From Bacillota bacterium (GTDB taxonomy: Bacteria; Bacillota; JAAYKD01): DNA of 64,000 bases. The stretch is from the NCBI GenBank assembly GCA_036744005.1, contig DAINOJ010000013.1, forward strand, positions 10-64,009. The letters are read 5' to 3'. The position numbers were made by a program, and so were the translations under genes. Numbering within the stretch: position 1 is the first letter of the stretch; every line of letters starts with the position of its first letter. This document shows, one piece after another, positions 649 to 20,052 of this stretch. The notes beneath the pieces are model-generated. The model was not told where the DNA came from, did not search any database, and saw nothing but the letters and a program-made list of their open reading frames with translations.

Positions 649-1983
649 ATGCCGAAAATAATAAGAAAAATACCGCAAAAGACGCGATTGGAACCACCCA
701 AAAAGGTCGCTGCCTATGCGCGTGTTTCGTCTGGAAAGGATGCCATGCTCCACTCGCTATCTTCACAGGTTAGCTATTACAGTAGATTCATACAAAGCCA
801 CGCAGAGTGGCTTTATGTAGGCGTTTATTCTGACGAAGCACTGAGCGGTACGAAGGACAACCGAACCGGGTTCCAAAAACTTCTCGCAGACTGCCGTTCT
901 GGAAAGGTGAACATGATACTGACCAAGTCCATCTCTCGCTTTGCCCGGAACACGGTGACCTTGCTGGAAACCGTCCGCGAGCTCAAGTCGTTGGAGGTGG
1001 ATGTTTTTTTTGAGGAGCAGAGCATCCATACGCTGAGTGCTGAGGGCGAGTTAATGCTGACCATACTTGCATCCTACGCGCAGGAAGAAAGCTTATCCGC
1101 TAGTGAAAATCAAAAATGGCGCGTTCGTAAGGGCTTTGAAAACGGAGAATTGCTCAATTGGCGGTTCCTGTTCGGGTATAGCATTACGAAGGTTGGAATT
1201 GAGATCGATACCACCACTGCGCCGATTGTTCGCGAAATATTTACCCGCGTTATCGACGGAGTGTCCTTAGGAGTGATTAGTAGGAGTCTAAACAGCCGAG
1301 GTGTTTCAGGTGAGCTTGGTGGCAAATGGTGTACCCAGCGTATTCGCGAAATAATTAGTAATGAGAAATATACGGGAAGTGCCATGCTTCAAAAGCACTA
1401 CAGAAATAACCATCTAGAGAAAAAGAAATGCCGTAACACAGGTGAGTTACCCATGTTCTTTGCGGAAGAAACACATCATGCGATCATAGACAAGGAAACC
1501 TTCCTTGTAGCAAATGCTATTTTAAAGGGAATGCAGGAATCAGTCAAAAACAGATCGCGACCACAGAAAAGTGAGTTCACAGGTAAAATCCACTGCCCCT
1601 ACTGTGGGAAAAATTTTAAGCGAAACATCGGTAAATGCACCGTGGGTTGGAACTGCTCCACTTTTCTCGCCAAAGGTAAAACGTATTGTCATGGCAAAAA
1701 AATACCCGAAGCAACCCTACAGGCCATATGTGCCGAGGTTCTTGTAATGGAAACCTACAACTCAGTTATCTTCCAAGAGAGAGTTGAGCGTATTGAAGCT
1801 TCGGAAGACAATTATTTGCTTTTTGTTTTCAAAGACGGTAGCACAGTTGAGCGCACCTGGGCTGACCGCTCACGGCGGGAAAGCTGGACAGCACAAATGA
1901 AGGTAGCAGCAACCGAGCGAATACGCAGCCAAAGGGGGAAAAAACATGCCAAGAGTAACGACAATACCAGCGACAAAAAATAA
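649..1983 (+). CDS. large serine recombinase (resolvase + recombinase + Zn-ribbon domains)
   Basis: VAAYARVSS catalytic motif, LTKSISRFARN, Zn ribbon CPYCG...WNC; RBS AAGGAGGTG. Confidence 0.95.
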   Translation: MPKIIRKIPQKTRLEPPKKVAAYARVSSGKDAMLHSLSSQVSYYSRFIQSHAEWLYVGVYSDEALSGTKDNRTGFQKLLADCRSGKVNMILTKSISRFARNTVTLLETVRELKSLEVDVFFEEQSIHTLSAEGELMLTILASYAQEESLSASENQKWRVRKGFENGELLNWRFLFGYSITKVGIEIDTTTAPIVREIFTRVIDGVSLGVISRSLNSRGVSGELGGKWCTQRIREIISNEKYTGSAMLQKHYRNNHLEKKKCRNTGELPMFFAEETHHAIIDKETFLVANAILKGMQESVKNRSRPQKSEFTGKIHCPYCGKNFKRNIGKCTVGWNCSTFLAKGKTYCHGKKIPEATLQAICAEVLVMETYNSVIFQERVERIEASEDNYLLFVFKDGSTVERTWADRSRRESWTAQMKVAATERIRSQRGKKHAKSNDNTSDKK

Positions 1984-3517
1984 GTTCACTGCACTGCCAA
2001 ACTCAATCAATGCAAAGCGACGCACTGCAGGGTATGCTCGTGTTTCCACGGATAAGGACGAGCAGTTTACCAGTTATGAGGCACAAGTCGATTATTACAC
2101 CAAATACATTCAATCCCGAGAGGACTGGGAGTTCGTAAAGGTTTATACGGATGAGGGGATTTCTGCTTTGAATACGAAACACCGGGAAGGCTTTCAACAG
2201 ATGGTGCGAGATGCCATGGATGGCAAGATAGACCTCATCGTAACAAAATCGGTCAGCCGATTTGCGAGAAACACAGTAGACAGCCTGGTTACCATACGCA
2301 AGCTGAAGGAGAAAGGGGTGGAGTGTTATTTTGAGAAAGAAAACATCTTCACCTTTGATGGTAAAGGCGAGCTGCTTCTCACCATTATGAGTTCTCTGGC
2401 ACAGGAAGAAAGCCGTTCCATTTCAGAAAATGTCACGTGGGGCCATCGCAAACGATTCTCAGATGGCAAGGTCAGCGTCGGTTACTCTCAATTTCTCGGG
2501 TTTACTAAGGGCGAGGATGGAAACCTCAAAGTAGTGCCGGAGCAAGCCGAAACGGTACGACTCATCTATAAGATGTTCCTTGAGGGAAGAACCACACAGG
2601 GCATAGCCAATTACCTTATGGAACACGGCATTCTCAGCCCTGCTAGAAAGAAGACATGGCGGTCATCCACAGTTGCTAGTATCCTCACCAATGAGAAATA
2701 TAGGGGCGATGCACTGCTCCAGAAACGGTTTACCGTTGACTTTTTAACGAAAGAACTACGGGTAAATAATGGTGAAGTACCCCAATATTATGTAGAAAAT
2801 TCACATGAAGCCATTATCGCTCCTGAGGAATATGAAATGGTGCAAGGAGAAATGGCACGGCGTAAGGATCTGGGCAGAGCATACAGCGATAAGGCGTTTC
2901 ACAGTAAAATCATCTGCGGAGAATGTGGTGGTTTCTATGGCCGAAAGATCTGGCATTCCACGGATGAATATAGAAGTGTGATCTTCCAGTGCAATCAGAA
3001 ATTCAAAAACGAGAATAAGTGCACCACACCCAAACTCAGCGAGGAAGAAATCAAACAGCGATTCCTTAAAGCCTACAATGACTTGATGGGCAATCGTTCT
3101 TCGGTGCTTGCTGATTGTGAGCTTATCCGTCAGGTGCTCTGTGAGACCACGACGCTTGATGCCGAATTGCAACACGAGCAAGATGAAATGGTGATTATGT
3201 CAGAGCTCATGCATGCACACATAAAAAAGAATGCGTCCGTTGCTCAGTCGCAGGAAGCCTACGCACTGGAAACAGAACGCATTGAGAAACGCTATAACAC
3301 CGCACTGGAACATTACAATGCTCTAGAAGTAGAGAAAGAGAAGAGGATGCAGAAGAGTAAGGAAATTAGCATTTTCATCACAACGTTGAAAAAACAACCA
3401 CTAACCGTAATGGAATGGAACGATCGACTTTGGATTACACTACTTGACACTGCCACCGTTAATAGAGAAGGTGAGATCGTATTCAAGTTTAAAAATGGTG
3501 TGTTGATGACTGTATAA
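1946..3517 (+). CDS. second large serine recombinase
   Basis: TAGYARVST, VTKSVSRFARN, CGECG...FQC Zn ribbon, C-terminal coiled coil; overlaps the first recombinase. Confidence 0.95.
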   Translation: MPRVTTIPATKNKFTALPNSINAKRRTAGYARVSTDKDEQFTSYEAQVDYYTKYIQSREDWEFVKVYTDEGISALNTKHREGFQQMVRDAMDGKIDLIVTKSVSRFARNTVDSLVTIRKLKEKGVECYFEKENIFTFDGKGELLLTIMSSLAQEESRSISENVTWGHRKRFSDGKVSVGYSQFLGFTKGEDGNLKVVPEQAETVRLIYKMFLEGRTTQGIANYLMEHGILSPARKKTWRSSTVASILTNEKYRGDALLQKRFTVDFLTKELRVNNGEVPQYYVENSHEAIIAPEEYEMVQGEMARRKDLGRAYSDKAFHSKIICGECGGFYGRKIWHSTDEYRSVIFQCNQKFKNENKCTTPKLSEEEIKQRFLKAYNDLMGNRSSVLADCELIRQVLCETTTLDAELQHEQDEMVIMSELMHAHIKKNASVAQSQEAYALETERIEKRYNTALEHYNALEVEKEKRMQKSKEISIFITTLKKQPLTVMEWNDRLWITLLDTATVNREGEIVFKFKNGVLMTV

Positions 3518-3703: not shown

Positions 3704-4960
3704 CTAGTTTACAATTTGTTTTATGTACAAAGGTAATAAGTCATTCTCAATGTAGTTGAAAGCATCAATATGGCAATCATTATATCCACAATCTCCCGAT
3801 AAATTCCTTTGAAGATGGCAGCCACCATGACACAGGGGTAAATACTTACAATCTTGACATCTGGAAGGTATGTCTCTGGTTAATTGTTTATAAGATTTTA
3901 TTTGCAGATTCCCGTCTTTTATATAACCAAAATCAGCATCGTCCACTCCGACACCGTTAAAACATTTATATACTTTACAATCCGGACCAACAACAAAACT
4001 CGAATCCGACTCACCCAAGCAAATGATCGAACTCACTGGATTTGGTATTTTGAAACCAAGTTGCAGAGACTTTTCAAAAAGCGATTTTTGATTATCAAAT
4101 TCCTGATTCAATACACTACACTGGTTATATAGATATGTATCTTCCACAAGATGAGCAAAATATACACAAACCCCAGTTTTATTAATGATTAAAGCACCTA
4201 GTTCATCAAGTGCTTTCGAAGCAAAATCGAGATTTCCCTTTGGATAATTAATTCGAATATCGAGCGGGATGTTGTTCTTTACCAACAGATTAGCAACATT
4301 AATCAAGTTGTCATAAGATCCTTGCTTGACTTTATTATGGTTTTCCTTACAACCATCAAAAGTCAACTGAACACCTTTAACAGGTAATTTCTTTAAATCA
4401 TTTAGAACGGTCTCGTTGATCAGGGTGCCATTTGTTATAAATTTGAATCCGTAATTTTTGATTCTGCTCTTGCTTAAAACTTTGCTCACTTCCCATACTG
4501 GGTCCATATTTAAAAATGGCTCCCCACCGATGATATTGACCATTATCCTGTCAAATGCCGATGCTTTTAACCAGTTCTCCAACCATAATGTTACAGACTT
4601 GGTTTTGTTTTCGTCTAAACGAGAGCGGCTTTTCATTGGATTCTGAATACAATAATAACAAGACAGATTGCATTCCATTGTTGTCACTAGCGTTAGAGCA
4701 CCAGCTTTATTTGTATAGGTAGATTTGTTGTAAAAGTATTTTAACTTATAAAAGTCTTCTAGGTGGTCTTCAACAATGTATCCATAGCTAAAAAGTTTTT
4801 TCTGTAGGTCACTTGATAGCCGGTTAATGTGATTATGAATAATCAGGTCATATTCGTCACTTGCTATCGATATAATGCTTTGATTAATGTATGAGAATAA
4901 AAACACCTTGTTCGGGAAATTTGGAAGTATAATTGCTGAACAGTAATTGCTTAATAGGAT
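3704..4960 (-). CDS. radical SAM/SPASM peptide maturase A
   Basis: CNLSCYYC (CxxxCxxC), IIGGEPF, SPASM cysteines (CLGE...VYKC; CQDCKYLPLCHGGC). Start uncertain: GGAGGT is followed 6 nt later by in-frame ATC at 4960; the track's TTG at 4978 lies upstream of this RBS. Confidence 0.9.
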   Translation of the reverse strand: MLLSNYCSAIILPNFPNKVFLFSYINQSIISIASDEYDLIIHNHINRLSSDLQKKLFSYGYIVEDHLEDFYKLKYFYNKSTYTNKAGALTLVTTMECNLSCYYCIQNPMKSRSRLDENKTKSVTLWLENWLKASAFDRIMVNIIGGEPFLNMDPVWEVSKVLSKSRIKNYGFKFITNGTLINETVLNDLKKLPVKGVQLTFDGCKENHNKVKQGSYDNLINVANLLVKNNIPLDIRINYPKGNLDFASKALDELGALIINKTGVCVYFAHLVEDTYLYNQCSVLNQEFDNQKSLFEKSLQLGFKIPNPVSSIICLGESDSSFVVGPDCKVYKCFNGVGVDDADFGYIKDGNLQIKSYKQLTRDIPSRCQDCKYLPLCHGGCHLQRNLSGDCGYNDCHIDAFNYIENDLLPLYIKQIVN

Positions 4961-5009
4961 GTGATTACCTCCCTTCAAAGATAAGTATTATTTAAAGGGA
5001 ACTCTATCA

Positions 5010-5111
5010 TTAAAAAGGGCAATCTACAAAAAGATTAATCATGTTGCAACAGCATAAATCTATATCTACCGGTCCATCAACTATTAATAGGAAACCTTCT
5101 TTGATAATCAT
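5010..5111 (-). CDS. putative RiPP precursor peptide A, 33 aa MIIKEGFLLIVDGPVDIDLCCCNMINLFVDCPF
   Basis: Translated by hand: RBS GAGAGGAGGA (5126-5117), ATG 5111, TAA 5012-5010, TATAAT at 5151-5146; directly upstream of rSAM A on the same strand. Confidence 0.75.
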   Translation of the reverse strand: MIIKEGFLLIVDGPVDIDLCCCNMINLFVDCPF

Positions 5112-5183
5112 TAAAATCCTCCTCTCTATTATTTAGTCAAGTCTTATTATACGAGAAAACCGCTAATGACTTACAAATAATGT

Positions 5184-6110
5184 TTAGTTTGTGAACCTTT
5201 GTAAACGTTTCTCAAATTTTTTTCTCGCTTGTTGTGAATCATAACCGTTTTTAGAGAATTCTTCGGGCAGCCAATCAATTGAATAAGTTATGAGTTCCAA
5301 AATTAGTTTTGTATCCATTTCCTTAAGTAGAATACGATACAGCATTTCATGAGCACATATAATGATTAGACTTGAATAATTTCTTCTAGATTTCAGAATC
5401 TTCCAAAGTGTTTCACGTGCCAAATCTATCTTTCCAGATCTCCATTGGCACTCAGCAAGTAGAATATCCAAGTTCTGAGACGGATAGTTTTTTTGAACCT
5501 CTTCACATAATTTAAGTGCTGAGTTGCTCTGGCCTGTAACTAAGTAACCAAAAATAAGGTTATAACTAGATTGTAATGTGGGATTTAAATCTGCCTTTGA
5601 TTTAAGTTCATCTAAAACGTCATATGTACCGTAATACAATATCTGCAATAAAATTTTCTGATTATGAATTTGAAACAGTTTTCCTTGATCAAGATCACTA
5701 ACTTCATTTATCAGTTCGTCGATGCGAGTAATTAAGTTATGAGACTTGTGAAGTAAATGAGTTATTTCTATAGAGATTAATCTAAACTCCATTTCGTCGT
5801 CCATTTTCGCTTCGCCATCGAGCTTAACAAGGTCTTGTACTTTTTCATATTCATCTAAATCTAAATCAAAATAGTACCTTGAGATAGATTTTTTGATTTG
5901 TTCCTTATTGCTATACATCATTATGTTATCAATGGTCGTATTTAATACGGATGCCAAAACAGGCAACAATTCACTTGCTGGAAGAGTTTTTCCTTGTTCC
6001 CAATTATAAACAGTAGCAAGGGATACCCCCGTCTTCTCTGCTAGATCGTTTGGGGTTAAATCTCTATCTTCTCTTAATTCCCGAATTTTATTTCCAATGT
6101 TTTGTTTCAT
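5184..6110 (-). CDS. XRE-family HTH regulator with helical/TPR-like C-terminal domain (Rgg/RNPP-like architecture)
   Basis: IGNKIRELREDRDLTPNDLAEKTGVSLATVYNWEQG HTH, then about 240 aa rich in helices; RBS AAGGAGG before ATG 6110. Confidence 0.8.
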   Translation of the reverse strand: MKQNIGNKIRELREDRDLTPNDLAEKTGVSLATVYNWEQGKTLPASELLPVLASVLNTTIDNIMMYSNKEQIKKSISRYYFDLDLDEYEKVQDLVKLDGEAKMDDEMEFRLISIEITHLLHKSHNLITRIDELINEVSDLDQGKLFQIHNQKILLQILYYGTYDVLDELKSKADLNPTLQSSYNLIFGYLVTGQSNSALKLCEEVQKNYPSQNLDILLAECQWRSGKIDLARETLWKILKSRRNYSSLIIICAHEMLYRILLKEMDTKLILELITYSIDWLPEEFSKNGYDSQQARKKFEKRLQRFTN

Positions 6111-6310
6111 ATATAACCTCCTTAAACAAAATAGAATATTCTTCAAAATCAGCTTGAATCCCTTCTTTTATAGAAAGTTCAAAAGTATATAAACTGCTCA
6201 AAACTCGAATAATAGTTAGTATAAATGAGTAGTTGGAGAAATGAGTTTATGAACTAATAGTAGGTGAAGAAAGGTTTTAGATAATTATAGAAAAATGGGG
6301 TAATATGAAC

Positions 6311-6338
6311 ATTCAATGTATGATAACATACATTGAAT
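6311..6338. promoter_or_regulatory. 12-bp perfect inverted repeat, candidate operator
   Basis: ATTCAATGTATG-ataa-CATACATTGAAT in the divergent intergenic region. Confidence 0.5.
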
Positions 6339-6486: not shown

Positions 6487-6556
6487 GATTTTAAAACATG
6501 TTTTTGTGGAGTTCTCTCGTCTTGTGTTTTATAATCATAATGAAGGAGGTGAAAAT

Positions 6557-6697
6557 ATGAAACTTATTAGGCTTAATTCTAACGCGAATTCATCTACAAG
6601 TCAATGCTTTACAAACACCTGCCCCACCAATTGCTCCTGTGTTTCGTTTTACCCAAGTTGCCCACCAGATTGTACTTCAGTCAACACCCAACAGTAG
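6557..6697 (+). CDS. putative RiPP precursor peptide B, 46 aa with six Cys (MKLIRLNSNANSSTSQCFTNTCPTNCSCVSFYPSCPPDCTSVNTQQ)
   Basis: Strong RBS GAAGGAGGTG then ATG 6557; first gene of the operon containing rSAM B; Cys-free leader and Cys/Ser/Thr-rich core. Confidence 0.85.
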   Translation: MKLIRLNSNANSSTSQCFTNTCPTNCSCVSFYPSCPPDCTSVNTQQ

Positions 6698-6702
6698 TTT
6701 TA

Positions 6703-6780
6703 TTTTAGGTTTGTATGTTTGAAACCTAAAACTGACTTTCTAATTTGCTTGGGGTAGCTTTTGGCTACCCTTATATTTTT
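6703..6780 (+). terminator. tandem hairpins after precursor B
   Basis: TTTTAGGTTT/AAACCTAAAA (6703-6731) and GGGTAGC/GCTACCC (6752-6770) followed by a T-rich run. Confidence 0.6.
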
Positions 6781-6791
6781 AGGAGGAGAAT

Positions 6792-7241
6792 TTGCTAGAA
6801 ACCAGATTAACAAAATCAAGGCAGGAATTTGAAGAATTATTAGAATATATGTATAAGAATAAATTATTCATTGCTGATAGATTCAAAACCGAATGCATAG
6901 AATCTTTTCAGGATTTTATAAAGAATTTGCTCTGTTATTCAATAATTGAAACAGAAAATGAAAGTGTGGTTGGATGCATTGTAATCTTAAATCTTGATTC
7001 TTGGAACCATAGAGCTGAAATTAGATTTACCTATTATTTATATATTGAAGACACTGCCATTCTTGATATTTTCAATAAGTTTTTCTTTTTTGAGCTAAAT
7101 CTACATAGAATATATTGGATAACAGAGAAATGCAAAGTTTCTGCTTTTGAGAAGCTCCATGCATTTTTTGAAGGCGAATATATACAAGATAGCGTTAAGT
7201 ATTGTTTCTATTCGATGGTTGGGAAAAATCGTGTTTACTAA
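6792..7241 (+). CDS. RimJ/RimL-type GNAT-fold protein 1 (divergent)
   Basis: NLDSWNHRAEIRF and ELNLHRIYW...FFEG segments; RBS AGGAGG, TTG start. Confidence 0.6.
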   Translation: MLETRLTKSRQEFEELLEYMYKNKLFIADRFKTECIESFQDFIKNLLCYSIIETENESVVGCIVILNLDSWNHRAEIRFTYYLYIEDTAILDIFNKFFFFELNLHRIYWITEKCKVSAFEKLHAFFEGEYIQDSVKYCFYSMVGKNRVY

Positions 7242-7292: not shown

Positions 7293-7742
7293 GTGTTTTT
7301 GTTGATTAATTTGGTGAATTTAAGCGAGTTAAATAAAATCGTCTTAGGAAATCGTAGGGCTTGGGTATATTCGCAATTTCCGCGAATCCCTACAGGGTAT
7401 GTTGAACGGCCTAATTTCCCACTCTCTGCTCTAAAATGGCAAGGTAAACATGGAAATATCCTCCTCATAATAATGGATGTTGAATTAACTTATGGCCAAG
7501 CTGAATTATGCTTTTTTGACTTTATAGGTAAAATCACAAGCGATGATGTTAAAAGATTTTGTGACTATTTTGGTAATTCGTTTGCTATAAGTCAGATAAG
7601 AACAACCATTCCAAAAAACGACGATTATATTGATGTTTTGCTTTCTGCGGGATTTAACCATGTTGCTTTCATGCAAGATCATATTTGTATATCACTAAAC
7701 ACTTACATAAATGCAGAAATATTAAATTATAAACTGATGTGA
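7293..7742 (+). CDS. RimJ/RimL-type GNAT-fold protein 2 (divergent)
   Basis: YGQAELCF, VLLSAGFNHVAFMQDHI resemble the RimL-type C-terminal GF..E motif; sits inside the operon. Confidence 0.5.
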   Translation: MFLLINLVNLSELNKIVLGNRRAWVYSQFPRIPTGYVERPNFPLSALKWQGKHGNILLIIMDVELTYGQAELCFFDFIGKITSDDVKRFCDYFGNSFAISQIRTTIPKNDDYIDVLLSAGFNHVAFMQDHICISLNTYINAEILNYKLM

Positions 7743-7757
7743 AGGAGACTGGCATGA

Positions 7758-9065
7758 ATGAATTACTTCAATAATAGAAAAAGCAATTTTACTATCAGGC
7801 AAAAACTTAACGAAAAAGAAACTTTGATACATAATACAAGTTCAAATACGTTGATCATTGTTGAAAATGAAGTTTATGAAAGATTTGAAAAATGTAATTG
7901 GAGCATATCTGAGCAAGAACGTTGGATAGAAGGCGGTTTTCTTATCGAAGACGAATTAGATGAGAGGGAGGATTTACTAAATCGATTTATTAGTGCAAGA
8001 AACTATTCGGATTTATCGTTAACAATCTGTCCTACTCTGGGCTGCAATCTACGGTGCGGTTATTGTTATGAGGATTCACAAAGTAAAATTGAATTCATGA
8101 GCGATTCCGTTGCAGATGAAATAGTAAGCTACGTTGAAAAAAATAAATTTGAGAATTTAGTGTTGACGTGGTATGGCGGAGAACCACTATTAGCATTAAG
8201 TAGAATTTTAGAGTTGCAAGAAAGGTTAAAATCCAAAACAAATAAAATTATATCAAGCATGATAACTAATGGTGTCCTCCTTACTAAGAAGACTTTCGAC
8301 GATCTAATAGTAGCGGGAGTAGGGCGGTTTCAGATTACAATTGATGGATCGAAATTTTACCATGACCTAAGAAGAATCACACCTAGCGGCGGAGGGACTT
8401 TTGATGTAATTACTCAGAATCTTCGTGATATAAATTGCGATCCGAAATATCTATCAATAAGAGTAAACATTGATAAAGAAAATAAAGAAGGCTTCATATC
8501 TCTATTAGAGTATTTTGATGAAGACCCTATTCTACGCAAATACTTAAGTATAATTTACCCTGCTCCAGTTACAGCTTGGTCCATTCTGCCAAATAACTGG
8601 ACTGAAAAATGCTTGGGTAATAAAGAGTATGCAGAGTTTTATTTTGATCTAAGTGATTTAGTTTATGAGCGGTATAGTATTAATTTAGTAAAAATTCCAG
8701 AATCAAAAAATATGTATTGTGGTGCTACAGTAAAGAATCATTTTGTTATTGGTCCAAAAGGTGAATTATACAAATGCTATATAACTGTTGGTGATACCAG
8801 TACAATTGTAGGTTATATAAATGGTGAAAATAAAGATGTTCTAAATAAAGAGGAATTGAGATTTTGGGATCAATGGAACCCCTTTAATAATGATAAATGT
8901 TATAATTGTCAGTTTCTCCCTCTATGTATGGGTGGTTGTCCGGGCTTAACCCATATAGCCAAAAAAAACCATGAGGACCAATGTTTTCAAATGAAAAGTT
9001 ATTATATAGATACAGTATCAAGGTCAATCCGCGGTGACTTAAATGAAATTAATGCAAGCGAGTAG
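7758..9065 (+). CDS. radical SAM/SPASM peptide maturase B
   Basis: CNLRCGYC, WYGGEPLL, SPASM (YCGA...LYKC; CYNCQFLPLCMGGCP...C), N-terminal extension consistent with an RRE. Confidence 0.93.
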   Translation: MNYFNNRKSNFTIRQKLNEKETLIHNTSSNTLIIVENEVYERFEKCNWSISEQERWIEGGFLIEDELDEREDLLNRFISARNYSDLSLTICPTLGCNLRCGYCYEDSQSKIEFMSDSVADEIVSYVEKNKFENLVLTWYGGEPLLALSRILELQERLKSKTNKIISSMITNGVLLTKKTFDDLIVAGVGRFQITIDGSKFYHDLRRITPSGGGTFDVITQNLRDINCDPKYLSIRVNIDKENKEGFISLLEYFDEDPILRKYLSIIYPAPVTAWSILPNNWTEKCLGNKEYAEFYFDLSDLVYERYSINLVKIPESKNMYCGATVKNHFVIGPKGELYKCYITVGDTSTIVGYINGENKDVLNKEELRFWDQWNPFNNDKCYNCQFLPLCMGGCPGLTHIAKKNHEDQCFQMKSYYIDTVSRSIRGDLNEINASE

Positions 9066-9549
9066 TTACGATGAATTGCTAAGTATAGCAAAACTTTATG
9101 AAAAACCTGAATATCTGAAATTCGCTGCTCAAAGTAAATACACTAATACTCAGATTCTTATAACCATATTCGATGAAGAGGTAAGAAAAGGTAATAACTT
9201 TTATTATGTAGGATACTATAAAAAAGAACCTGCAGTTGTTTTTGCTTTGAGAAACGTTTCAAGGTATAATAAAAGTGCTGAACTTCATATTGTTTTTATA
9301 ATTGAAAATGAAAGTTATAGATTTCTCTATATCGGTATCAAAGAGATGTACAGAATTGCATTTGATGAGCTACGTCTGAGAAAGCTTTATGGTCAAACAC
9401 CAAAATGGAATAACGGTTTAATAGGAATTTTATTGCTTACAGGAGCTGCTATAGTTGGGGAATTTGAGAAAGGAATATTTCACGATGGTATTTATAGTCC
9501 AAATGTGATATTGGAAATATTGAATCAAGATAATAAGTTTAGAAAGTGA
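9043..9549 (+). CDS. RimJ/RimL-type GNAT-fold protein 3
   Basis: VSRYNKSAELHI, AFDELRLRKLYGQTPKWN, GEFEKGIFHDGIY; overlaps the rSAM B stop. Confidence 0.7.
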   Translation: MKLMQASSYDELLSIAKLYEKPEYLKFAAQSKYTNTQILITIFDEEVRKGNNFYYVGYYKKEPAVVFALRNVSRYNKSAELHIVFIIENESYRFLYIGIKEMYRIAFDELRLRKLYGQTPKWNNGLIGILLLTGAAIVGEFEKGIFHDGIYSPNVILEILNQDNKFRK

Positions 9550-9550
9550 G

Positions 9551-10012
9551 ATGACTAATATGCTCATTATGCAAACAGATCGTCAAGAGGTTCTTAACAA
9601 ATGGAAAAGTCGGTTATCTATAAACGATTTAAGTGATAATGAAATCGGTGATTATTATGGAACCTTAGACAATATTAAGGTTATGATAAGACCTTTAATA
9701 GTTAACAATAAATCTGAAGTTGACATAGAAAACGTTAATTTTTTTGTTACAACTAATCATGATCTTAATGAAAATCAGATTAGTTTAGTCCTTGAAGGTG
9801 CTAAAGCCTATTTGCCTATTGTTTATCGATGGTTAGAAGATGAAAAGAGAATCCACAACAATATTCAAATTGTTAATCAGTTAGAACGTGAGTCAACGAT
9901 AAGAAAATTAACAGTCGAAATACCTAGTAAAATCGAACCGGATTTTCTAATAGGTATAAATGCGTTGACTAGGTATATTTTAGCGAGCGAGTTTTATGGC
10001 AAACAGGTATAG
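9551..10012 (+). CDS. hypothetical protein in the RiPP operon
   Basis: 153-aa ORF starting 2 nt after the previous stop; no recognised motif. Confidence 0.6.
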   Translation: MTNMLIMQTDRQEVLNKWKSRLSINDLSDNEIGDYYGTLDNIKVMIRPLIVNNKSEVDIENVNFFVTTNHDLNENQISLVLEGAKAYLPIVYRWLEDEKRIHNNIQIVNQLERESTIRKLTVEIPSKIEPDFLIGINALTRYILASEFYGKQV

Positions 10013-10167: not shown

Positions 10168-10848
10168 ATGGGAAACCAAATTGTAGCAATCAAAGGGGAT
10201 AGATTACGCCGGGTCTTCCATCTGGGAGATCAGGAAGTTCGTGCATTAGATGAGATCAACATTGAAGTGTATCAGGGGGAGCTTGTCATGCTCCTTGGCC
10301 CTTCGGGTTCGGGAAAAACAACTCTTTTGCATACCTTGTCTGGTTTAGATGCACCGGATCGAGGAGAAGTTTTCGTAGACGACGTGTCAATCTATAAACT
10401 GAATGATAATAAGTTATCTCATTTACGTAGTCGGTCTTTCGGTTTCGTTTTTCAGTCGTTTAACTTATTACCAAACCTGACTGCCTTAGAAAATGTGCAG
10501 ATTCCGTTACGCATAACAGGGCAAGACAATCCAGTCGAGAAATCAATGGAAATGCTCAAGCGTGTGGGCTTGGGCGACCGGGCACACCACCGACCAGGAC
10601 AACTCTCGGGAGGAGAACAACAGCGAGTCACCGTAGCTCGAGCCTTAGTATCAAAACCAAAAATTGTCTTTGCCGATGAACCGACCGGAAACTTAGATTC
10701 CGTGACCAGCATGGAGATCATGAATCTGCTGAAGGAAATGGTCCATGAAAACAACTCGGCATGTTTAATGGTTACTCACAATGCTGAAATGGTTCCGTTA
10801 GCAAATCGGGTTTTATACTTAAGAGACGGGAAAATGGTAAATAAGTAA
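10168..10848 (+). CDS. ABC transporter ATP-binding subunit (LolD/MacB-type)
   Basis: GPSGSGKT, LSGGEQQR, ADEPTGNLD, VTH. Confidence 0.95.
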   Translation: MGNQIVAIKGDRLRRVFHLGDQEVRALDEINIEVYQGELVMLLGPSGSGKTTLLHTLSGLDAPDRGEVFVDDVSIYKLNDNKLSHLRSRSFGFVFQSFNLLPNLTALENVQIPLRITGQDNPVEKSMEMLKRVGLGDRAHHRPGQLSGGEQQRVTVARALVSKPKIVFADEPTGNLDSVTSMEIMNLLKEMVHENNSACLMVTHNAEMVPLANRVLYLRDGKMVNK

Positions 10849-11962: not shown

Positions 11963-13177
11963 ATGCTTTGGATGACATTCGTGTCTTTTCGGCGAAATCT
12001 TCATAATTACTCCTTAGCCATTATTGGGTTAGCTCTTGCAGTCTTAGTGAGCTGCATAGGATTGAGTGGGTTGGGCATGCTTCAGGATTTCGCCTTAGTA
12101 CCTTTACGATTTTTGTTTGGAGAAAATGTTATTATTGCCGATGCAAGAACCGAAATCAAGACCACATCTACAATGATTTATGCTGATCCACTCGATATTA
12201 AACCATTCTCGGCAACGCTTGTAAACTCTTTTTTAGAAGAAGTAGCACCTGGCACCAAACTGGAAAAGGTTCTCATTGCTCCATATAGGATGCGAGATGG
12301 GTGGAGCTATGTTGCCGGAAGAATGAACCCAGATGAGAAAATAAGAAAATACATATATAGTTCGGATGTAACAGAAGGAGTTTTTAGCGACAGTTATGAA
12401 AAAATCTATCTTGCAACCGATCAGAGGTTTAAAAACAATAATGGAGAGATTAGCAGCCCTCTGTTGTACTTAGGTGCTGGAGATTATATGAATTTAACCG
12501 TACCAACGATTACTACCGAAAAAAACGGTTATGATTGGTCGATACCAAATCTGGCAAAAAAACAAGTTCAGGTTCAAAGTTTATATGACTCCTCCAGTGT
12601 TATGTATATGGTTGATTGGGTCAAGTTGGATGTTCTTCAGCAACTCGTTGGTGGGAATGAACCAGTATCTTTTATTTCTGTTGAATGTCCTTTAAACAAA
12701 ATGGACGAATTAAAGAATACTCTGGTGACTCGAATGGAAGAGGAAAATTTTCCTTTGCAGGTTTGGACAATTTATGATGTCGGGGAATTACTGTACGGGG
12801 ACTTTGAGCGATTTGAAGTGATGGCTGACTATTATGTTCCGGTAATGATGTTTGTTTCCGTTCTTATTGTGCTCGTCAATTCGATTGCATTGACGTTATC
12901 GCGCCGTAAAGAGCTTGCATTAATGCGTATCGTTGGATTCAGCCAAATACAGATACAAATGATGTTTGTTGCTGAATGTATCATAATTGCACTTCTTGGA
13001 GGTTTATTGGGAACCGGGATCGCTGGGTTTATTTCGATGCAATTCACTAACACATTTAGTGTTAATTGGTTACCGTATATCATTGCTTTAGTTTCTACTG
13101 CGGTTGTAAGTACGATTACTACCATTTTGCTGACCAAAGGAAGTTTAGCAAGCATTATGAGAAATCCGGTTGAGTAA
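11963..13177 (+). CDS. ABC permease, FtsX/MacB-like
   Basis: RRKELALMRIVGFS FtsX motif, same topology as the previous permease. Confidence 0.9.
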   Translation: MLWMTFVSFRRNLHNYSLAIIGLALAVLVSCIGLSGLGMLQDFALVPLRFLFGENVIIADARTEIKTTSTMIYADPLDIKPFSATLVNSFLEEVAPGTKLEKVLIAPYRMRDGWSYVAGRMNPDEKIRKYIYSSDVTEGVFSDSYEKIYLATDQRFKNNNGEISSPLLYLGAGDYMNLTVPTITTEKNGYDWSIPNLAKKQVQVQSLYDSSSVMYMVDWVKLDVLQQLVGGNEPVSFISVECPLNKMDELKNTLVTRMEEENFPLQVWTIYDVGELLYGDFERFEVMADYYVPVMMFVSVLIVLVNSIALTLSRRKELALMRIVGFSQIQIQMMFVAECIIIALLGGLLGTGIAGFISMQFTNTFSVNWLPYIIALVSTAVVSTITTILLTKGSLASIMRNPVE

Positions 13178-13273
13178 AATATTGAGCTTGGGCTTCTCCC
13201 TTCGATGTTTTCTTACCGAAAAAACAAAAACACATATAGATACAATAGTGTATATAAACCCGGAGGTGGTATT

Positions 13274-14107
13274 ATCAAGATCAAAATTCTAGTTGATAGT
13301 TCATGCGATATGCCGAGAGAGTATATTAGAAAATGGAATATTGGGGTGGCTCCACTTTTTGTTCAATTAGGTAAAAATAGCTTTCAAGATGGTGTTAACC
13401 TTAGCACTGAAGAATTCTATCGATGGTGCAGAACACACACGGAAGTCCCTCAAACAGCCCAACCGTCCGTTGGAATTTGTGAAAAGCTGATCCGTGAGAG
13501 CTTAGAGGAACATGATCATGTCATCTGTTTCACAGTATCTTCTTCGCTATCCAGCACATTACAAGCTTTCCGTATAGCTTCAGAAGAGTATAAGGAAAGT
13601 GTTACCGTTTTTGATACATTATCTGTGTCTCTTGGAATAACACTTTTAGTTCTACATGCAGTTGAGTTAATTGAAAAAGGTTCTGATATCGATGAAATTC
13701 TTTTACGGCTTCAGGAAGCACGCAAACACCAAAAAGTTATCATGTCTTTACAGACGTTGGAATATGCTGTTAAAGGAGGTCGTGTCACCCGATGGTCACC
13801 TGTTGATTCAGATATATTATCAATTAAGCCAATTTTACATATTGATTGCAATGGATATGCAAAAGTATTAGAGAAAGTTCGTAGCGAACGTCTTGCTTTT
13901 CGCTTTTTAATCAATACCATGAAAGATACGTTTGGCAATACCCAACCATTTAGGATTGGTATAGCTCATGGAGATAGTGAAGATCAGGCAAGGAAATTTA
14001 TGCAGATTGTTAGAGAGGAATTGAACCCTAAAGAGATTATTTTTTCGCAAATAGGTCCTGTCATTGGATCTCATATCGCCCCAGGTGCTTTATTGGTCTC
14101 ATTTTAA
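13274..14107 (+). CDS. DegV/FakB family fatty-acid-binding protein
   Basis: KIKILVDSSCDMP, PQTAQPS, SSSLSST, VFDTLSVSLG, GGRV, IKPIL, IAHG, IGSHIAPG. Start uncertain: GGAGGT 13262-13267 then ATC 13274; the track's ATG at 13205 has no RBS. Confidence 0.9.
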   Translation: MKIKILVDSSCDMPREYIRKWNIGVAPLFVQLGKNSFQDGVNLSTEEFYRWCRTHTEVPQTAQPSVGICEKLIRESLEEHDHVICFTVSSSLSSTLQAFRIASEEYKESVTVFDTLSVSLGITLLVLHAVELIEKGSDIDEILLRLQEARKHQKVIMSLQTLEYAVKGGRVTRWSPVDSDILSIKPILHIDCNGYAKVLEKVRSERLAFRFLINTMKDTFGNTQPFRIGIAHGDSEDQARKFMQIVREELNPKEIIFSQIGPVIGSHIAPGALLVSF

Positions 14108-14765: not shown

Positions 14766-15348
14766 GGCAGAAAAAAAGTCAACACATTCTCGCTGGGCGC
14801 AATGCGTCCAATTCGCAAAGTGCCATACGAGAAGTTGACTTCTTAGAACACCAGCGCTATCCCGTCAGTACCGCAAGGGTAAAGCTCAAAGCGAAGAATT
14901 TCGCCCGGTTAGGATGCCCACTGATGCTCATGATAATTATATCAGAGGAACTGAGAAAAGTCAAAAAGTTGCTCTCTATTTTTGACTTCGTTGCTGCTTT
15001 GTTTATTGCATCAACCAAGAGATTCGGAAGCTCTTCCGATGTACTGTTTAATTCGGCAGAAATTTCTCTAATTGTATGAAATAGAAAGGAAATTGCGGTA
15101 GACTGGGGGAATAGTGTATTTAAACAAAAACTAATGAATTTGAGTTTTCATGAATACGAACCATATGGAGTGGAAGCGGGTTTTCTAACCATTCAAAACT
15201 TCCTAAATTTGTCGTATCGCAAAACAATAACTCTCCATTGCGGTTCTCCAATTTACGAGATTTTAGCAATGGATTTTTTTTGCCCGGATTAGCATTCTGA
15301 GATAAGAAATCCATACTCACATCATGATCAGCAGAAGAGGTGATATAT

Positions 15349-15954
15349 ATGAACAAACAAATGCCATACAATGGCACCCTAACAGCGGAACAATTTTTGT
15401 ATTACGAAATGAGAATTGTATCCAAGCTGCATCTTGAGGGAAAGAATATGGAAGAGATTATTGAATGCATCCAGCGTGATAACCTGTTCCAGTTTCCTAC
15501 CGAGCGAATGATTTATAGAATTGCTAGTGCATGTTACAAACGCATCATTGCATTGGATAACCCGAAGCTTGTCTACGAAGTAGCAAATGCTCCGGTCGAT
15601 GTCGCTAAACAGATCAACCTTTACTCGATGATGTGTTACAACCGTCTAGTCCGTGAATTTATGGAAGGGCTGATTGGAGAAAAGTATCGGCAACAAGATT
15701 ACTCTTATACTAGGAAGGACATCAACATATTTTTCACCCGTTTACAGGAGCAGCACGACGATGTAGCAGCTTGGAGCGATAAGACGATTGGGAAATTAAA
15801 GCAAGTATTAACCAAATGCCTCATTGAAACGGAGATGCTCAATAGTGTGAAGGATACCACGCTCAACCCTATTTTTATAAGTTCTGAACTGGAAACTGGC
15901 ATCCGTGAAAACAACGACTTGACCGCTCTCGCTGCGTTCAATTGCTTTAGGTAG
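15349..15954 (+). CDS. brxA: BREX protein BrxA (DUF1819)
   Basis: YNGTLTAEQFLYYEMR, DNLFQFPTE, WSDKTIGKLKQ; first gene of the BREX operon; RBS AAGAGGTG. Confidence 0.9.
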   Translation: MNKQMPYNGTLTAEQFLYYEMRIVSKLHLEGKNMEEIIECIQRDNLFQFPTERMIYRIASACYKRIIALDNPKLVYEVANAPVDVAKQINLYSMMCYNRLVREFMEGLIGEKYRQQDYSYTRKDINIFFTRLQEQHDDVAAWSDKTIGKLKQVLTKCLIETEMLNSVKDTTLNPIFISSELETGIRENNDLTALAAFNCFR

Positions 15955-15964
15955 GAGTGTGAAT

Positions 15965-16522
15965 ATGACTGATATCAAACAAGAACTAGACAAAATTAAA
16001 GCTCGTATCTCCGATGCGAATTTTCTCGCGAACAAAGGTCTATCTAATGAAGTGGGAATTCATGTTTTCACCTACGAACCACAACACGAGCTTATCGTTC
16101 GGGATTATATTGAGCGTCTCGTTAACACCCCGTCCAAGGATTACAGGATTATTGAGAGAGACATGTATAAAATCTTACTAGAAATACTGGATGAGAAACG
16201 TGTTCTTGTTAGCGTGCCATCTTTAGAAGAAAAGAAGGGTAAAGACTTTCTTCTTGCTCAGCTTCAGAAGATTGCAACACAAGATGCTTTTCTTACTAAG
16301 ATGAAATACGAACCACGTCAATACGGAGACGTATTGTTCCTAACAGGTGTCGGTAAAGTATACCCATTTATGAGATCTCATAAAATCCTTGATAGTATGC
16401 AGTTAGAATTCGACAAAGTGCCCATTGTCATGTTTTACCCTGGAGTATTCGATGGTAAGAGCTTAAGCTTATTCGATAAATTCCATGATGGGAACTATTA
16501 TAGAGCGTTTAATCTACTTTAG
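15965..16522 (+). CDS. brxB: BREX protein BrxB (DUF1788)
   Basis: GLSNEVGIHVFTYEP, LTGVGKVYPFMRSH, PIVMFYPG, NYYRAF. Confidence 0.92.
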   Translation: MTDIKQELDKIKARISDANFLANKGLSNEVGIHVFTYEPQHELIVRDYIERLVNTPSKDYRIIERDMYKILLEILDEKRVLVSVPSLEEKKGKDFLLAQLQKIATQDAFLTKMKYEPRQYGDVLFLTGVGKVYPFMRSHKILDSMQLEFDKVPIVMFYPGVFDGKSLSLFDKFHDGNYYRAFNLL

Positions 16523-16533
16523 GAGGCAAGCAA

Positions 16534-19500
16534 ATGAAAATCCAGAATATGTTCAAAAAGGATATCAACCGCGACATCAATGGTGTGATCAAGGTCGCAC
16601 AGGATGATGAACAGAGTCTTATTCAGGAACTCAGCGAGTATATCATCACCAAAGAACTCCGACGCCTCTTTGAAACTTTTTTTCATAACTACACGAAAGC
16701 GATTGATCACCCAACTGACAAAATAGGTGTTTGGATCTCAGGTTTCTTTGGAAGTGGTAAATCCCATTTCTTGAAAATGCTTTCCTACCTTCTCTCAAAC
16801 CCTGAAGTTGACAAGAAAAGCACCATTAGTTTCTTTAAAGATAAATTCGAAGACCCTATGATGTATGCTTCGATTGTCCGTTGTACGAATATCCCCACAG
16901 AATCAATCCTCTTTAACATCGATATTGAAGGGCCAATAAAGAAAGATAAGACCGCTGTCTTGCGTGTGTTTACCAAGGTGTTTTATAACCATCTTGGATT
17001 CTATGGCGAAGACTTAAAAATCGCCAAACTGGAGCGCTTCATCGAGAAGAAAGGGTTGACCGAGACTTTCCGCAAAGTGTTTGAACAAATAAATGGTTCG
17101 CCTTGGACGGAAGCCAGAGCTTCCTATGCGTTTTTCGAAGATGACATTGTTACGGTTCTGCAAAGAACACTTGATATGAGCGAAACGGCTGCCCGTAACT
17201 GGTTCAACGGAGAAGAGAACCAAGATATGAGCATTAAGCAACTCGTAGAGGAAATTAAAGAATACGTCGATTCAAAGGGTAAGGATTTTAGACTCCTATT
17301 TTGTGTGGACGAAGTCGGTCAATACATTGGGGACGATAGTGACTTAATGATCAATCTTCAATCCATTGTCGAAGAAGTGGGTAGCAAATGCCAGGGAAAA
17401 GTCTGGGTTATGGTGACCAGCCAGGAAGCCATCGACTCGGTAGTGAAAATCAGTGGCGATGATTTCTCAAAGATTCAAGGGCGTTTTAACACTCGCTTAT
17501 CCTTGTCCTCCGCTTCGGTGGATGAGGTGATTAAGAAGCGTATACTCGAAAAAACAGAGGACGCAGAGGCTCTTCTTCGTATGGTTTACGATAGAGAACA
17601 TGCCGTTTTAAAGAATCTCTTTACCTTCAATGAATCCGTATTAGATATCAAGGGTTATGCCGACAGCGCTGAGTTCACATCAACCTATCCTTTTGTTCCA
17701 TACCAATTCATCATCATTCAAAAAGTCCTTGCGGAGATCCGCAAACACGGCAATGCAGGTAGGCATCTCTCTGGCGGAGAGCGCTCCATGCTTTCAGGAT
17801 TCCAGGAAGCAGCACAAAAAATTCAGAACAAAGATGAGAATGCACTTGTATCTTTCTCGCAATTCTATGATACCGTACATACCTTTCTTGAAAGTCCGAT
17901 TCGCCGAGTCATTGACCGTTGTCAAACAGCGGCCGATAAACATGACGGCTTAGAACAGCGGGATGTGCGCGTTCTAAAATTGCTTTACCTTATTCGCTAC
18001 ATCGACGACTTTAAGGCGAACATTGATAATATCTCTACTTTAATGATAGAAGATATCCGCACAGATAAGATTACTTTACGTCGTGAAATCGCCGAAAGCT
18101 TGGAACGCTTAGTACGCCAAAACTATGTTGCGCGACATGGCGATAGCTACTCCTTCTTAACGGATGAGGAGCAAGATGTAGCAACCGACATTCGCAACAC
18201 ACCTGTTGATACAGCAACCATTGTACAGAGTATTGGTCAGACCATCTTTAACGAGATCTATTCCTCAAAGAAGTTTAAATATAACAAATATGACTTCTCC
18301 TATGACCAGTATATCGATGAATACATGATCGGAACTGCATCGGGTGGAGTACGCTTGCGTTTGGTAACCGTGGTCAGCGATTATTATAATGCTCCTGAAG
18401 CTAAGCTTATTATGGATTCAAAGATTAACAACGAAGCGATTGTAGTATTATCGGGTGAGACTCATTATTTTGAAGAACTTGAGACTGCTGCCAAAATACG
18501 CAAATACATTAAGCAGAAGAACGTGTCTCAGCTACCTGAAAGCATTCAGGATATCATCCGCAAACGCCAAGCACAGGCACGCGTGTTAGAAGAAAGCGCG
18601 AGAACACAGATAGACAAAGCGATTGTTGGTAGTAGCTTCTTTATTCATGGGGAGAAAGCCGAAATCAAATATGGAGATGCCAAGAGTAAATTGGATGAAG
18701 CACTAAAGCAACTCATCGATAGTGTCTACTCAAAGTTGAGCCAGGTTAACACCTTCAGCGATAGTGATGCCGATATTTTAACGATACTCAACAGCTCCCC
18801 TCAGCAAATCGGTTTTTCTGGCACTGGTTCCAATAATGAATATGCCTTAAACGAGATTAGCCAATGGCTCGAAGATCGTTATTTAAGTCATGTACCTGTT
18901 TCCATGGGTGATGTTCATCGTAGATACCAAGCAATACCCCATGGTTGGCGTGAAATCGATATCGCAGCGCTCGTAGCAAGACTCATCGTTGCACAAAGAA
19001 TTGAAATCCGTTACGGGGGTGCTGCAGTTAGTAAAGAGGATAAAAACATTGTCCGATACCTCCGGGCAAAATCAGAGATTGACAAAGCAAGCGTCAGTCG
19101 AAGAATCTCGCCCTCAGAAGACGACATGCGTAAAGTTGTTAAGTTCCTCCGTGATTGGCTTGGGAAGATGAATATACCCGAGGATGAAGATGGACTCTTA
19201 TACTATATTAAAGAGACTTTTAATACCAAGCTTGCTCACTATGAGAATCTACTGGTTGAATACAATCATTTCAATTACCCAGAGAAAGACGTAGTGCTTA
19301 AAGCACAAGCCCTTATTGTGGAAATATTTTCTCAGAGATCGGATAATGTTGCTCTATTGAAGAAGCTTCTTGTAAAACAAGATGATTTGCGTGATATCAC
19401 TGATGACATGGAAGACATTGAAACCTTCTTTCGATCTCAGAGAGACATTTTTGATTCTGCACAAAAATTATACGCCAGTCTGCAGAACGAATTGGATTAT

Positions 19501-20052
19501 TTTGCTTCGATCCAAAGCACGAATGAGAAAATTAGAGAAGTTGCTGCTATCATTGCCATGAAAAAGCCCTATAATAGAATAAAGGACTTATCTGAATTGA
19601 TGCAGAGCATAAAAGTTGCATATGAGTCCTTGCTCAAGCAAAAGAAAGACGAAGTTCTGGGCATCATACAGCAATGTATGGGGGACATCCACACACTGGC
19701 AGGAGCCGGTAACAAGGTAAAAAATGAAGTAAATCAGTCAGATGAGCGATTCGTTGATTACAAACAAAGAACGAACAAAGCTACTAGTCTCACCATGTTG
19801 GATGCAATGGTCACGCAAATGCTCAACTATAAGGACCATATATGTAGAAGAATGGAAGCAATGATAAGTGTAGAAGCCCCTGTTAAACCTGGAGAGACGT
19901 TACAGAAGCTTAGGATTTCGCAAGTACGCCGCTATGAAATTTTCCCAACCAAACGACTGACCACACAAGCAGAGGTCGACACCTACCTTGAATCGATACG
20001 GAAAAAGCTAATCGAGATTTTACAAGCGAATGACGGAATCCAAATAACCTAG
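16534..20052 (+). CDS. brxC: BREX P-loop ATPase BrxC
   Basis: WISGFFGSGKSH Walker A, VDEVGQY Walker B, KIQGRF, YPFVPYQ. Confidence 0.95.
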   Translation: MKIQNMFKKDINRDINGVIKVAQDDEQSLIQELSEYIITKELRRLFETFFHNYTKAIDHPTDKIGVWISGFFGSGKSHFLKMLSYLLSNPEVDKKSTISFFKDKFEDPMMYASIVRCTNIPTESILFNIDIEGPIKKDKTAVLRVFTKVFYNHLGFYGEDLKIAKLERFIEKKGLTETFRKVFEQINGSPWTEARASYAFFEDDIVTVLQRTLDMSETAARNWFNGEENQDMSIKQLVEEIKEYVDSKGKDFRLLFCVDEVGQYIGDDSDLMINLQSIVEEVGSKCQGKVWVMVTSQEAIDSVVKISGDDFSKIQGRFNTRLSLSSASVDEVIKKRILEKTEDAEALLRMVYDREHAVLKNLFTFNESVLDIKGYADSAEFTSTYPFVPYQFIIIQKVLAEIRKHGNAGRHLSGGERSMLSGFQEAAQKIQNKDENALVSFSQFYDTVHTFLESPIRRVIDRCQTAADKHDGLEQRDVRVLKLLYLIRYIDDFKANIDNISTLMIEDIRTDKITLRREIAESLERLVRQNYVARHGDSYSFLTDEEQDVATDIRNTPVDTATIVQSIGQTIFNEIYSSKKFKYNKYDFSYDQYIDEYMIGTASGGVRLRLVTVVSDYYNAPEAKLIMDSKINNEAIVVLSGETHYFEELETAAKIRKYIKQKNVSQLPESIQDIIRKRQAQARVLEESARTQIDKAIVGSSFFIHGEKAEIKYGDAKSKLDEALKQLIDSVYSKLSQVNTFSDSDADILTILNSSPQQIGFSGTGSNNEYALNEISQWLEDRYLSHVPVSMGDVHRRYQAIPHGWREIDIAALVARLIVAQRIEIRYGGAAVSKEDKNIVRYLRAKSEIDKASVSRRISPSEDDMRKVVKFLRDWLGKMNIPEDEDGLLYYIKETFNTKLAHYENLLVEYNHFNYPEKDVVLKAQALIVEIFSQRSDNVALLKKLLVKQDDLRDITDDMEDIETFFRSQRDIFDSAQKLYASLQNELDYFASIQSTNEKIREVAAIIAMKKPYNRIKDLSELMQSIKVAYESLLKQKKDEVLGIIQQCMGDIHTLAGAGNKVKNEVNQSDERFVDYKQRTNKATSLTMLDAMVTQMLNYKDHICRRMEAMISVEAPVKPGETLQKLRISQVRRYEIFPTKRLTTQAEVDTYLESIRKKLIEILQANDGIQIT

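Follow-up and report, generated by a model that had tools for sequence, protein, structure and literature searches.

Peptides cross-linked by radical-SAM enzymes have yielded many narrow-spectrum antibiotics and much new enzyme chemistry. The described systems closest to the locus presented here are the SCIFF peptides, whose loci usually consist of the peptide and its enzyme alone, the Clo7bot, CefA/CefB and TIGR04463 systems, and the ranthipeptide freyrasin, with its Cys-X3-Asp beta-thioethers and its enzyme PapB. As far as we found, the Clo7bot, CefA/CefB and TIGR04463 systems are curated but not chemically characterised, and a literature search returned no papers on TIGR04463 or Clo7bot. 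The class is defined by its linkage, which joins the Cys sulfur to an alpha carbon in sactipeptides and to a beta or gamma carbon in ranthipeptides (PMC10288494). In the goadvionins, GNAT enzymes transfer ACP-bound acyl units to RiPPs, and the selidamides are likewise made by GNAT acyltransferases (PMC8784127).

The locus lies in a 64-kb window, by which we mean the whole stretch of DNA that was analysed, and all coordinates are positions in that window. Translation of 6557-6697 (+) gives MKLIRLNSNANSSTSQCFTNTCPTNCSCVSFYPSCPPDCTSVNTQQ followed by a stop codon. This small open reading frame heads a co-directional, tightly packed operon on the forward strand, which has the following features:

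6543..6551, + strand: Shine-Dalgarno sequence AAGGAGGTG, read directly, with a 5-nt spacer to the precursor ATG
6557..6697, + strand: putative precursor peptide gene, 46 aa and stop
6751..6781, + strand: terminator-like hairpin (9-bp stem, 5 GC pairs) with a T-rich tail
6792..7241, + strand: predicted GNAT-fold protein 1, 149 aa; profile match in the PDB to aminoglycoside N6'-acetyltransferase 8q6u, 1.1e-4
7293..7742, + strand: 149-aa protein, no fold match; conserved partner directly upstream of the rSAM-B gene
7758..9065, + strand: putative radical-SAM/SPASM peptide maturase, 435 aa, here called rSAM-B
9043..9549, + strand: 168-aa SpeG-like protein (predicted GNAT-fold protein 2); its first 23 nt lie within the end of the rSAM-B gene
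9551..10012, + strand: 153-aa protein, no family match
10168..10848, + strand: ABC transporter ATPase of the MacB/LolD/DevA type; a homologous gene is at the same place in the relative L011
10870..11943, + strand: exporter permease 1, 357 aa, weak FtsX similarity
11963..13177, + strand: exporter permease 2, 404 aa, FtsX domain (Pfam FtsX, 2e-10)

The 46-aa peptide has six Cys residues, at positions 17, 22, 26, 28, 35 and 39. Its presumed leader comprises approximately residues 1-16 (MKLIRLNSNANSSTSQ) and the Cys-rich core starts at C17. The core is devoid of Lys and contains one C-x2-D and one C-x2-N spacing and no C-x3-D. The hairpin proper (6751-6771) is placed between the precursor and the next gene, directly ahead of the ribosome-binding site of the latter, and is presumed to act as a partial terminator that sets the ratio of precursor to enzyme. 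No Rfam family was found at the precursor region.

A strong Shine-Dalgarno sequence was found in 12 of the 1589 small ORFs in the window, the most Cys-rich of these 12 being the 46-aa precursor and a 33-aa ORF beside another radical-SAM gene. For a test of selection the precursor ORF was compared with a variant lineage whose DNA is 96% identical (L009, L120, L121). Six substitutions separate the two, five synonymous and one non-synonymous (N11K, in the leader), which gives a pN/pS of ~0.05 (binomial P=0.002); all six changes would be non-synonymous if either other frame were read. It is this synonymous excess, together with the strong ribosome-binding site, the hairpin and a homologue at the same place in the operon of L011, that leads us to regard the ORF as a real gene, which looks translated and is under purifying selection. 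It is uncalled as a gene in every public assembly that carries it (L001-L009, L120, L121), whereas the neighbouring 33-aa ORF is called. This explains why a k-mer protein search returned not even a self-match for the precursor, and it makes protein-database mining blind to the family.

One true relative was found when one genome per GTDB species was scanned by means of the enzyme. This is L011, a Fermentithermobacillaceae MAG, whose enzyme is 39% identical to rSAM-B over the full length. The L011 precursor, MKLLVLPTRPNRSYEPCPTHECTTACPCISHDPCEPVNKAPR, occupies the same operon position, has its own Shine-Dalgarno sequence (GAGGAGGTG) 6 nt ahead of its ATG and is followed by a strong hairpin. It contains five Cys, the first four of which are at 17, 22, 26 and 28, the positions that they have in the window peptide, while the fifth (34) pairs with C35 through a one-residue gap in the Smith-Waterman alignment and is unpaired in the MAFFT alignment. 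The Smith-Waterman score of 73 between the two peptides was reached by none of 20000 shuffles, and core and leader were also significant when each was taken alone (P ~0.0017 and ~0.0014, respectively). The N-terminus MKL..L is common to both peptides, and the invariant positions are M1, K2, L3, L6, S13, C17, T19, C22, T24, C26, C28, S30, P33, P36, V42 and N43. A putative family signature can be written as MKL[IL]xL, about ten variable residues, C-x-T-x2-C-x-T-x-C-x-C-[VI]-S, about four residues and C-x-P.

The gene order in L011 is that of the window operon with one extra gene. Homologues of the 7293 149-aa protein (25% identical) and of the 168-aa protein were found in L011 by tblastn, and weaker matches at the corresponding positions were obtained for the 6792 149-aa protein (E 2e-6) and the 153-aa protein (E 0.015). 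ORFs of 364 and 403 aa stand at the positions of permeases 1 and 2, a homology read by eye and unscored. Between an unknown 167-aa gene and the ABC ATPase gene, L011 has a gene that has no counterpart in the window, where the operon contains no ACP:

L011 4083-4376: PP-binding (acyl carrier protein) gene, Pfam 3e-9, with a DSL motif

In addition, at the end of the L011 operon and convergent to it there is a 519-aa ORF (L011 7535-9094, -) that by eye is zinc carboxypeptidase-like. It may be unrelated or may be a processing enzyme, and nothing similar was seen at the window locus.

Among 5.8 billion clusters the relatives of rSAM-B comprise one 97% cluster, one at 53% (L010) and others at 39% or less. 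L010 is a 1.7-kb contig in which a 46%-identical fragment of the 7293 partner lies directly upstream of the enzyme. By reciprocal best hits, the window rSAM-B groups with the protein P0002 and the L011 enzyme in one clade (337-354 bits), and the scores of the other enzymes do not exceed 222 bits. None of 80 JGI metagenome loci with related enzymes, nor of three such viral loci in IMG/VR, had the accessory genes or the peptide. The precursor family thus described, for which the evidence covers three or four lineages, appears to be very rare.

The enzyme rSAM-B carries the CxxxCxxC motif (C96/C100/C103) and seven SPASM Cys (321, 340, 381, 384, 390, 394 and 409), and the full SPASM Cys set and the CxxxCxxC are invariant among 72 homologues. 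It scores 55.8 bits on the SPASM model TIGR04085 (cut-off 27) and has sites for two auxiliary clusters. An AF2 model built with 72 sequences reached a pLDDT of 92, and in a fold search its best match was CteB (5wgg), with a TM of 0.71 over 470 columns and along the whole length. CteB is also the best solved match by sequence (3.7e-14). In the model, residues ~1-85 form an N-terminal domain of beta-sheet and helices that aligns with CteB and has an RRE-like layout. SuiB, TigE, ChlB and EpeE are also in the fold list (E<=1e-7), and since these carry out other chemistries the fold leaves the reaction of rSAM-B unfixed.

The best NCBIfam neighbours of rSAM-B are all maturases of Cys-rich peptides and all scores are far below the respective cut-offs. 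The highest is that of TIGR04463, 250.7 bits against a cut-off of 525, which is below half, followed by CefB (NF038107; 203 bits, cut-off 600), the Clo7bot maturase (TIGR04334; 201.5 bits, cut-off 600), the geopeptide model (201 bits, cut-off 400), PapB (NF047865; 126.6 bits, cut-off 340) and the SCIFF maturase (TIGR03974; 68.2 bits, cut-off 425). Two features by which the sacti/ranthipeptide class is recognised are present, namely an enzyme with CxxxCxxC, SPASM and RRE-like parts and an adjacent precursor with a Cys-rich core.

The same assignment had been proposed in a sequence-only reading of this DNA, which took the peptide to represent a distinct family of sacti- or ranthipeptide type, unlike SCIFF. 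The architecture and the negative family tests bear this out. The HMM comparison with SCIFF and other precursor families gave no match for the 46-aa precursor at E<=10 in Pfam or NCBIfam, including TIGR03973, TIGR04333 and NF038108, whereas a SCIFF-type control peptide scored 90.9 bits on TIGR03973 (3.3e-26; cut-off 50 bits). Peptides from neighbouring clades do match TIGR04333, so this model works on short peptides. Moreover, when 1.84 billion representative proteins were searched in full with HMMER, there was no match at E<=0.001. The absence of any precursor-family match and of any protein relative, and an enzyme below every cut-off, support a distinct family unlike SCIFF.

That reading had also described an internal repeat. 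The translation and the self-match confirmed the 46-aa ORF, the six Cys positions and the two similar units, since the best gapless self-match pairs TCPTNCSCV (21-29) with SCPPDCTSV (34-42) at a BLOSUM62 score of 30. Shuffled sequences scored as high in 22 of 2000 cases for the whole peptide (1.1%), in 29 of 2000 for the core (1.5%) and in 85 of 2000 when the Cys were kept fixed (4%), and the repeat is weak, being modestly beyond chance. In L011 the first unit is retained as xCxTxCxC[VI], whereas of the second only PCEP..VN is left, which has one Cys, against SCPPDCTSVN in the window peptide. The N and D of CPTNC and CPPDC (N25 and D38) are A and absent, respectively, in L011. Lacking the second unit, the sixth Cys and N25/D38 in its relative, the repeat is specific to the window lineage, and the suggestion of a duplicated ring motif did not hold up. 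The C-terminal 'TQQ' of the precursor resembles the streptococcal TQQ peptides, and this likeness was dropped, as it is not conserved in L011.

The accessory proteins of the operon are the more unusual part of it. The profile of the 168-aa protein matches spermidine N1-acetyltransferases (SpeG) in the PDB (3.4e-8), its L011 homologue matches Pfam Acetyltransf_3 at 5e-5, and the 6792 149-aa protein aligns to the 168-aa protein with an hhalign probability of 87%. From these profile matches the two are predicted to be GNAT-fold proteins and to be related to each other. The canonical acyl-CoA pyrophosphate-binding loop is Q/R-x-x-G-x-G/A; QGYGYA of SpeG aligns with the non-canonical ESYRFLY in the window 168-aa protein and with WGSGLL in L011, and the acetyl-CoA loop of the window GNAT-fold proteins looks degenerate. 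The 7293 149-aa protein, which gene callers start at 7299 (147 aa), had no match in Pfam, NCBIfam, PDB or profile-profile searches, and a k-mer search of 5.8 billion clusters found a single other cluster, at 96%. Our impression that it might also be GNAT-like is unproven. A single-sequence AF2 model of the 153-aa protein was unreliable (pLDDT 50). No protease is encoded in the operon. A literature search returned no description of GNAT-fold partners with thioether-forming radical-SAM enzymes.

To the left of the operon, on the opposite strand, is a second small cluster with a peptide and a radical-SAM gene of its own:

3704-4978, - strand: rSAM-A, the second radical-SAM/SPASM gene
5010-5111, - strand: 33-aa ORF MIIKEGFLLIVDGPVDIDLCCCNMINLFVDCPF, with a strong Shine-Dalgarno sequence
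5184..6146, - strand: regulator with an XRE-type HTH and a helical/TPR-like C-terminal domain; only the HTH matches solved structures

Natural variants of the 33-aa ORF (P0137-P0139) differ at residues 25-26 and in the C-terminal tail, and synonymous changes outnumber non-synonymous ones. In L124 and L125 the regulator, 33-aa peptide and rSAM genes form a cassette that stands alone between transposases, the rSAM-B operon being absent. It follows from these two loci that the cassette and the rSAM-B operon are separable and that each enzyme has its own peptide. The layout of the cassette (3704-6146), a regulator and then a small peptide, recalls by analogy that of peptide-pheromone systems. The regulator belongs to this cassette, and we infer that it is a candidate for the control of both the cassette and the precursor operon.

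Between the regulator and the precursor there is a perfect inverted repeat of 12+12 bp at 6311-6338, ATTCAATGTATG-ATAA-CATACATTGAAT, the only one in the window, where 0 are expected. A candidate role is that of an operator or, alternatively, of a terminator-like hairpin on the - strand. The 96% variant lineage, which is similar to the window only from ~6439 onwards, lacks the repeat.

Two overlapping genes for large serine recombinases (444 and 523 aa) are found immediately to the left of the cluster (649-3517), and in a longer public contig (L001 408-1112) they are preceded by phage-type Amidase_2/SPOR and SHOCT/DUF2116 genes. The recombinase end has the appearance of a prophage or integrative-element boundary. 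On the other side, the permease genes are followed by a DegV (fatty-acid-binding) gene (13205-14107) and, 1.2 kb past it, by BREX genes, with BrxA, BrxB and BrxC/PglY in precomputed Pfam annotation at 15340-20052 and the system probably continuing to ~30464. The position of the region between two large serine recombinases and BREX suggests a genomic island, and the closeness of BREX would place the peptide cluster within an island of competition and defence genes. A reading of the locus itself, which stands beside BREX, as a defence system was rejected, PADLOC giving generic radical-SAM/viperin and HTH similarity only.

We consider it probable that the 46-aa ORF encodes the substrate precursor of a rare ribosomal pathway, whose product is provided with thioether rings by rSAM-B and exported. 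Thioether cross-linking of the sacti/ranthipeptide type is the best inference for its chemistry. The RRE-like domain at the N-terminus of rSAM-B would bind the leader of ~16 aa, and hydrogen would be abstracted from acceptor residues in the core by 5'-deoxyadenosyl radicals formed at the radical-SAM cluster. Several small thioether rings could then be closed by the conserved Cys thiols, which, as in CteB, would be presented at the SPASM auxiliary clusters. The conserved T19, T24 and S30, which have a hydroxy group and stand two residues after a Cys, would be the most obvious candidate acceptors, and this is a guess. The GNAT-fold proteins might acylate the peptide or serve as non-catalytic partners, and the MacB-type ABC system would export the product and may protect the producer. 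Since no protease is encoded, removal of the leader, if there is any, would be carried out by an unlinked host enzyme. The likely role would be that of an antimicrobial or signalling peptide on a genomic island.

Other explanations of the locus have to be weighed against this one. The 46-aa ORF might not be a substrate at all but an upstream ORF that is regulatory or arose by chance, in which case rSAM-B would act elsewhere, for example on the 33-aa peptide. Gene callers did skip the ORF in every public assembly, and the second Cys-rich peptide is 1.4 kb distant. We nevertheless find this very improbable, for the purifying selection is confined to the frame of the 46-aa ORF, L011 has a homologous peptide at the same operon position and has no 33-aa peptide, and in L124 and L125, where the rSAM-B operon is missing, the 33-aa peptide is accompanied by a radical-SAM gene and a regulator of its own. 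A different question is whether a genuine precursor could receive some other modification from rSAM-B, such as a C-C or C-O link, an epimerisation or a cyclopropanation, with the Cys serving for disulfides or metal. The Cys, at identical spacing, are the only block conserved between two distant peptides, the closest relative of rSAM-B both in sequence and in structure is a thioether synthase (CteB), and the nearest NCBIfam families all mature Cys-rich targets, all of which makes such chemistry unlikely in our judgement. It would be in keeping with a fold list that includes SuiB (Lys-Trp C-C), TigE (cyclopropylglycine), ChlB and EpeE (an epimerase), with scores of rSAM-B that stay under the cut-offs of all curated models of thioether maturases, with a precursor that matches no known thioether-peptide family, and with the presence in the core of conserved Thr, Ser, Pro, Val and Asn as well.

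Compatible with the preferred reading, in which rSAM-B forms thioether rings on the 46-aa peptide, is the tentative possibility that the product is in addition acylated or lipidated by one or both of the GNAT-fold proteins. In L011 the acyl donor might be the dedicated carrier protein, and in the window organism acyl-CoA or the housekeeping ACP. The presence within the operon of two GNAT-fold proteins with translational coupling to rSAM-B, an ACP gene inside the L011 operon and the known acylation of RiPPs by GNAT enzymes in goadvionins and selidamides (PMC8784127) all point in this direction. On the other hand the window operon has no ACP, its 168-aa protein has a non-canonical acetyl-CoA/pantetheine loop, the window core offers no Lys, and the literature gave no precedent for GNAT together with radical-SAM thioether formation. 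A more elaborate scheme, and one that we regard as decidedly doubtful, would be a hybrid not described so far. Its peptide would be both thioether-bridged and GNAT-acylated, with a pathway ACP as donor in L011, and its production would be triggered from the neighbouring mobile cassette, whose second radical-SAM enzyme would mature the CCC-containing 33-aa peptide into a pheromone sensed by the HTH/TPR-like regulator.

The locus adds a precursor/enzyme pair that is outside every curated family. It is unusual in its two predicted GNAT-fold partners, in the ACP of the L011 relative and in the adjacent mobile cassette of peptide, radical-SAM and regulator genes. If the GNAT partners were active, the product would join two types of modification that are now known only separately. 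As it comprises a single 46-aa peptide, a single enzyme and four small proteins, it would also lend itself to co-expression as a clean and compact test case. At present the locus counts as a further uncharacterised representative of a large, well-recognised class.

In comparison with known systems, the locus is like SCIFF/thermocellin and CteB in that the peptide is of ~46 aa with six Cys in its C-terminal two thirds and in that RRE, radical-SAM and SPASM parts are combined in the partner enzyme in the same architecture. It differs in that the SCIFF peptides and the 46-aa precursor have no sequence relation and that four further small proteins and an ABC exporter are encoded at the window locus. 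The enzyme families nearest to rSAM-B are those of the Clo7bot, CefA/CefB and TIGR04463 systems (201-251 bits). The nearest individual relatives of the enzyme (30-37% identity) adjoin Clo7bot-type, CefA-type and many unnamed short Cys-rich peptides, the leaders of which are short and MK(Y/F)(I/L)(I/V)KP-like. Peptides of the Clo7bot and CefA type are of 30-50 aa, with a leader of ~14-17 aa that starts with M-K/R-hydrophobic-I/L and a dense Cys core, and the window peptide has the same general layout. Their loci, in contrast to the window, often contain several tandem precursors and are without GNAT-fold genes. An HMM of 38 Clo7bot/CefA-like peptides from related loci did not detect the window peptide, and for this reason we speak of a resemblance of design and claim no homology.

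With freyrasin and PapB the likeness is that CPTN and CPPD can be read as a repeated short spacing from Cys to an acidic or amide residue, and that PapB is a detectable relative of rSAM-B. The window motif is, however, C-x2-N/D, occurs twice only and is not conserved in L011. The goadvionin and selidamide pathways are without radical-SAM cross-linking, the homology to them is at the level of the superfamily only and the cofactor loop in the window appears degenerate; what they have in common with the present locus is the placing of GNAT-fold proteins within a RiPP operon and, in the L011 relative, a carrier protein.
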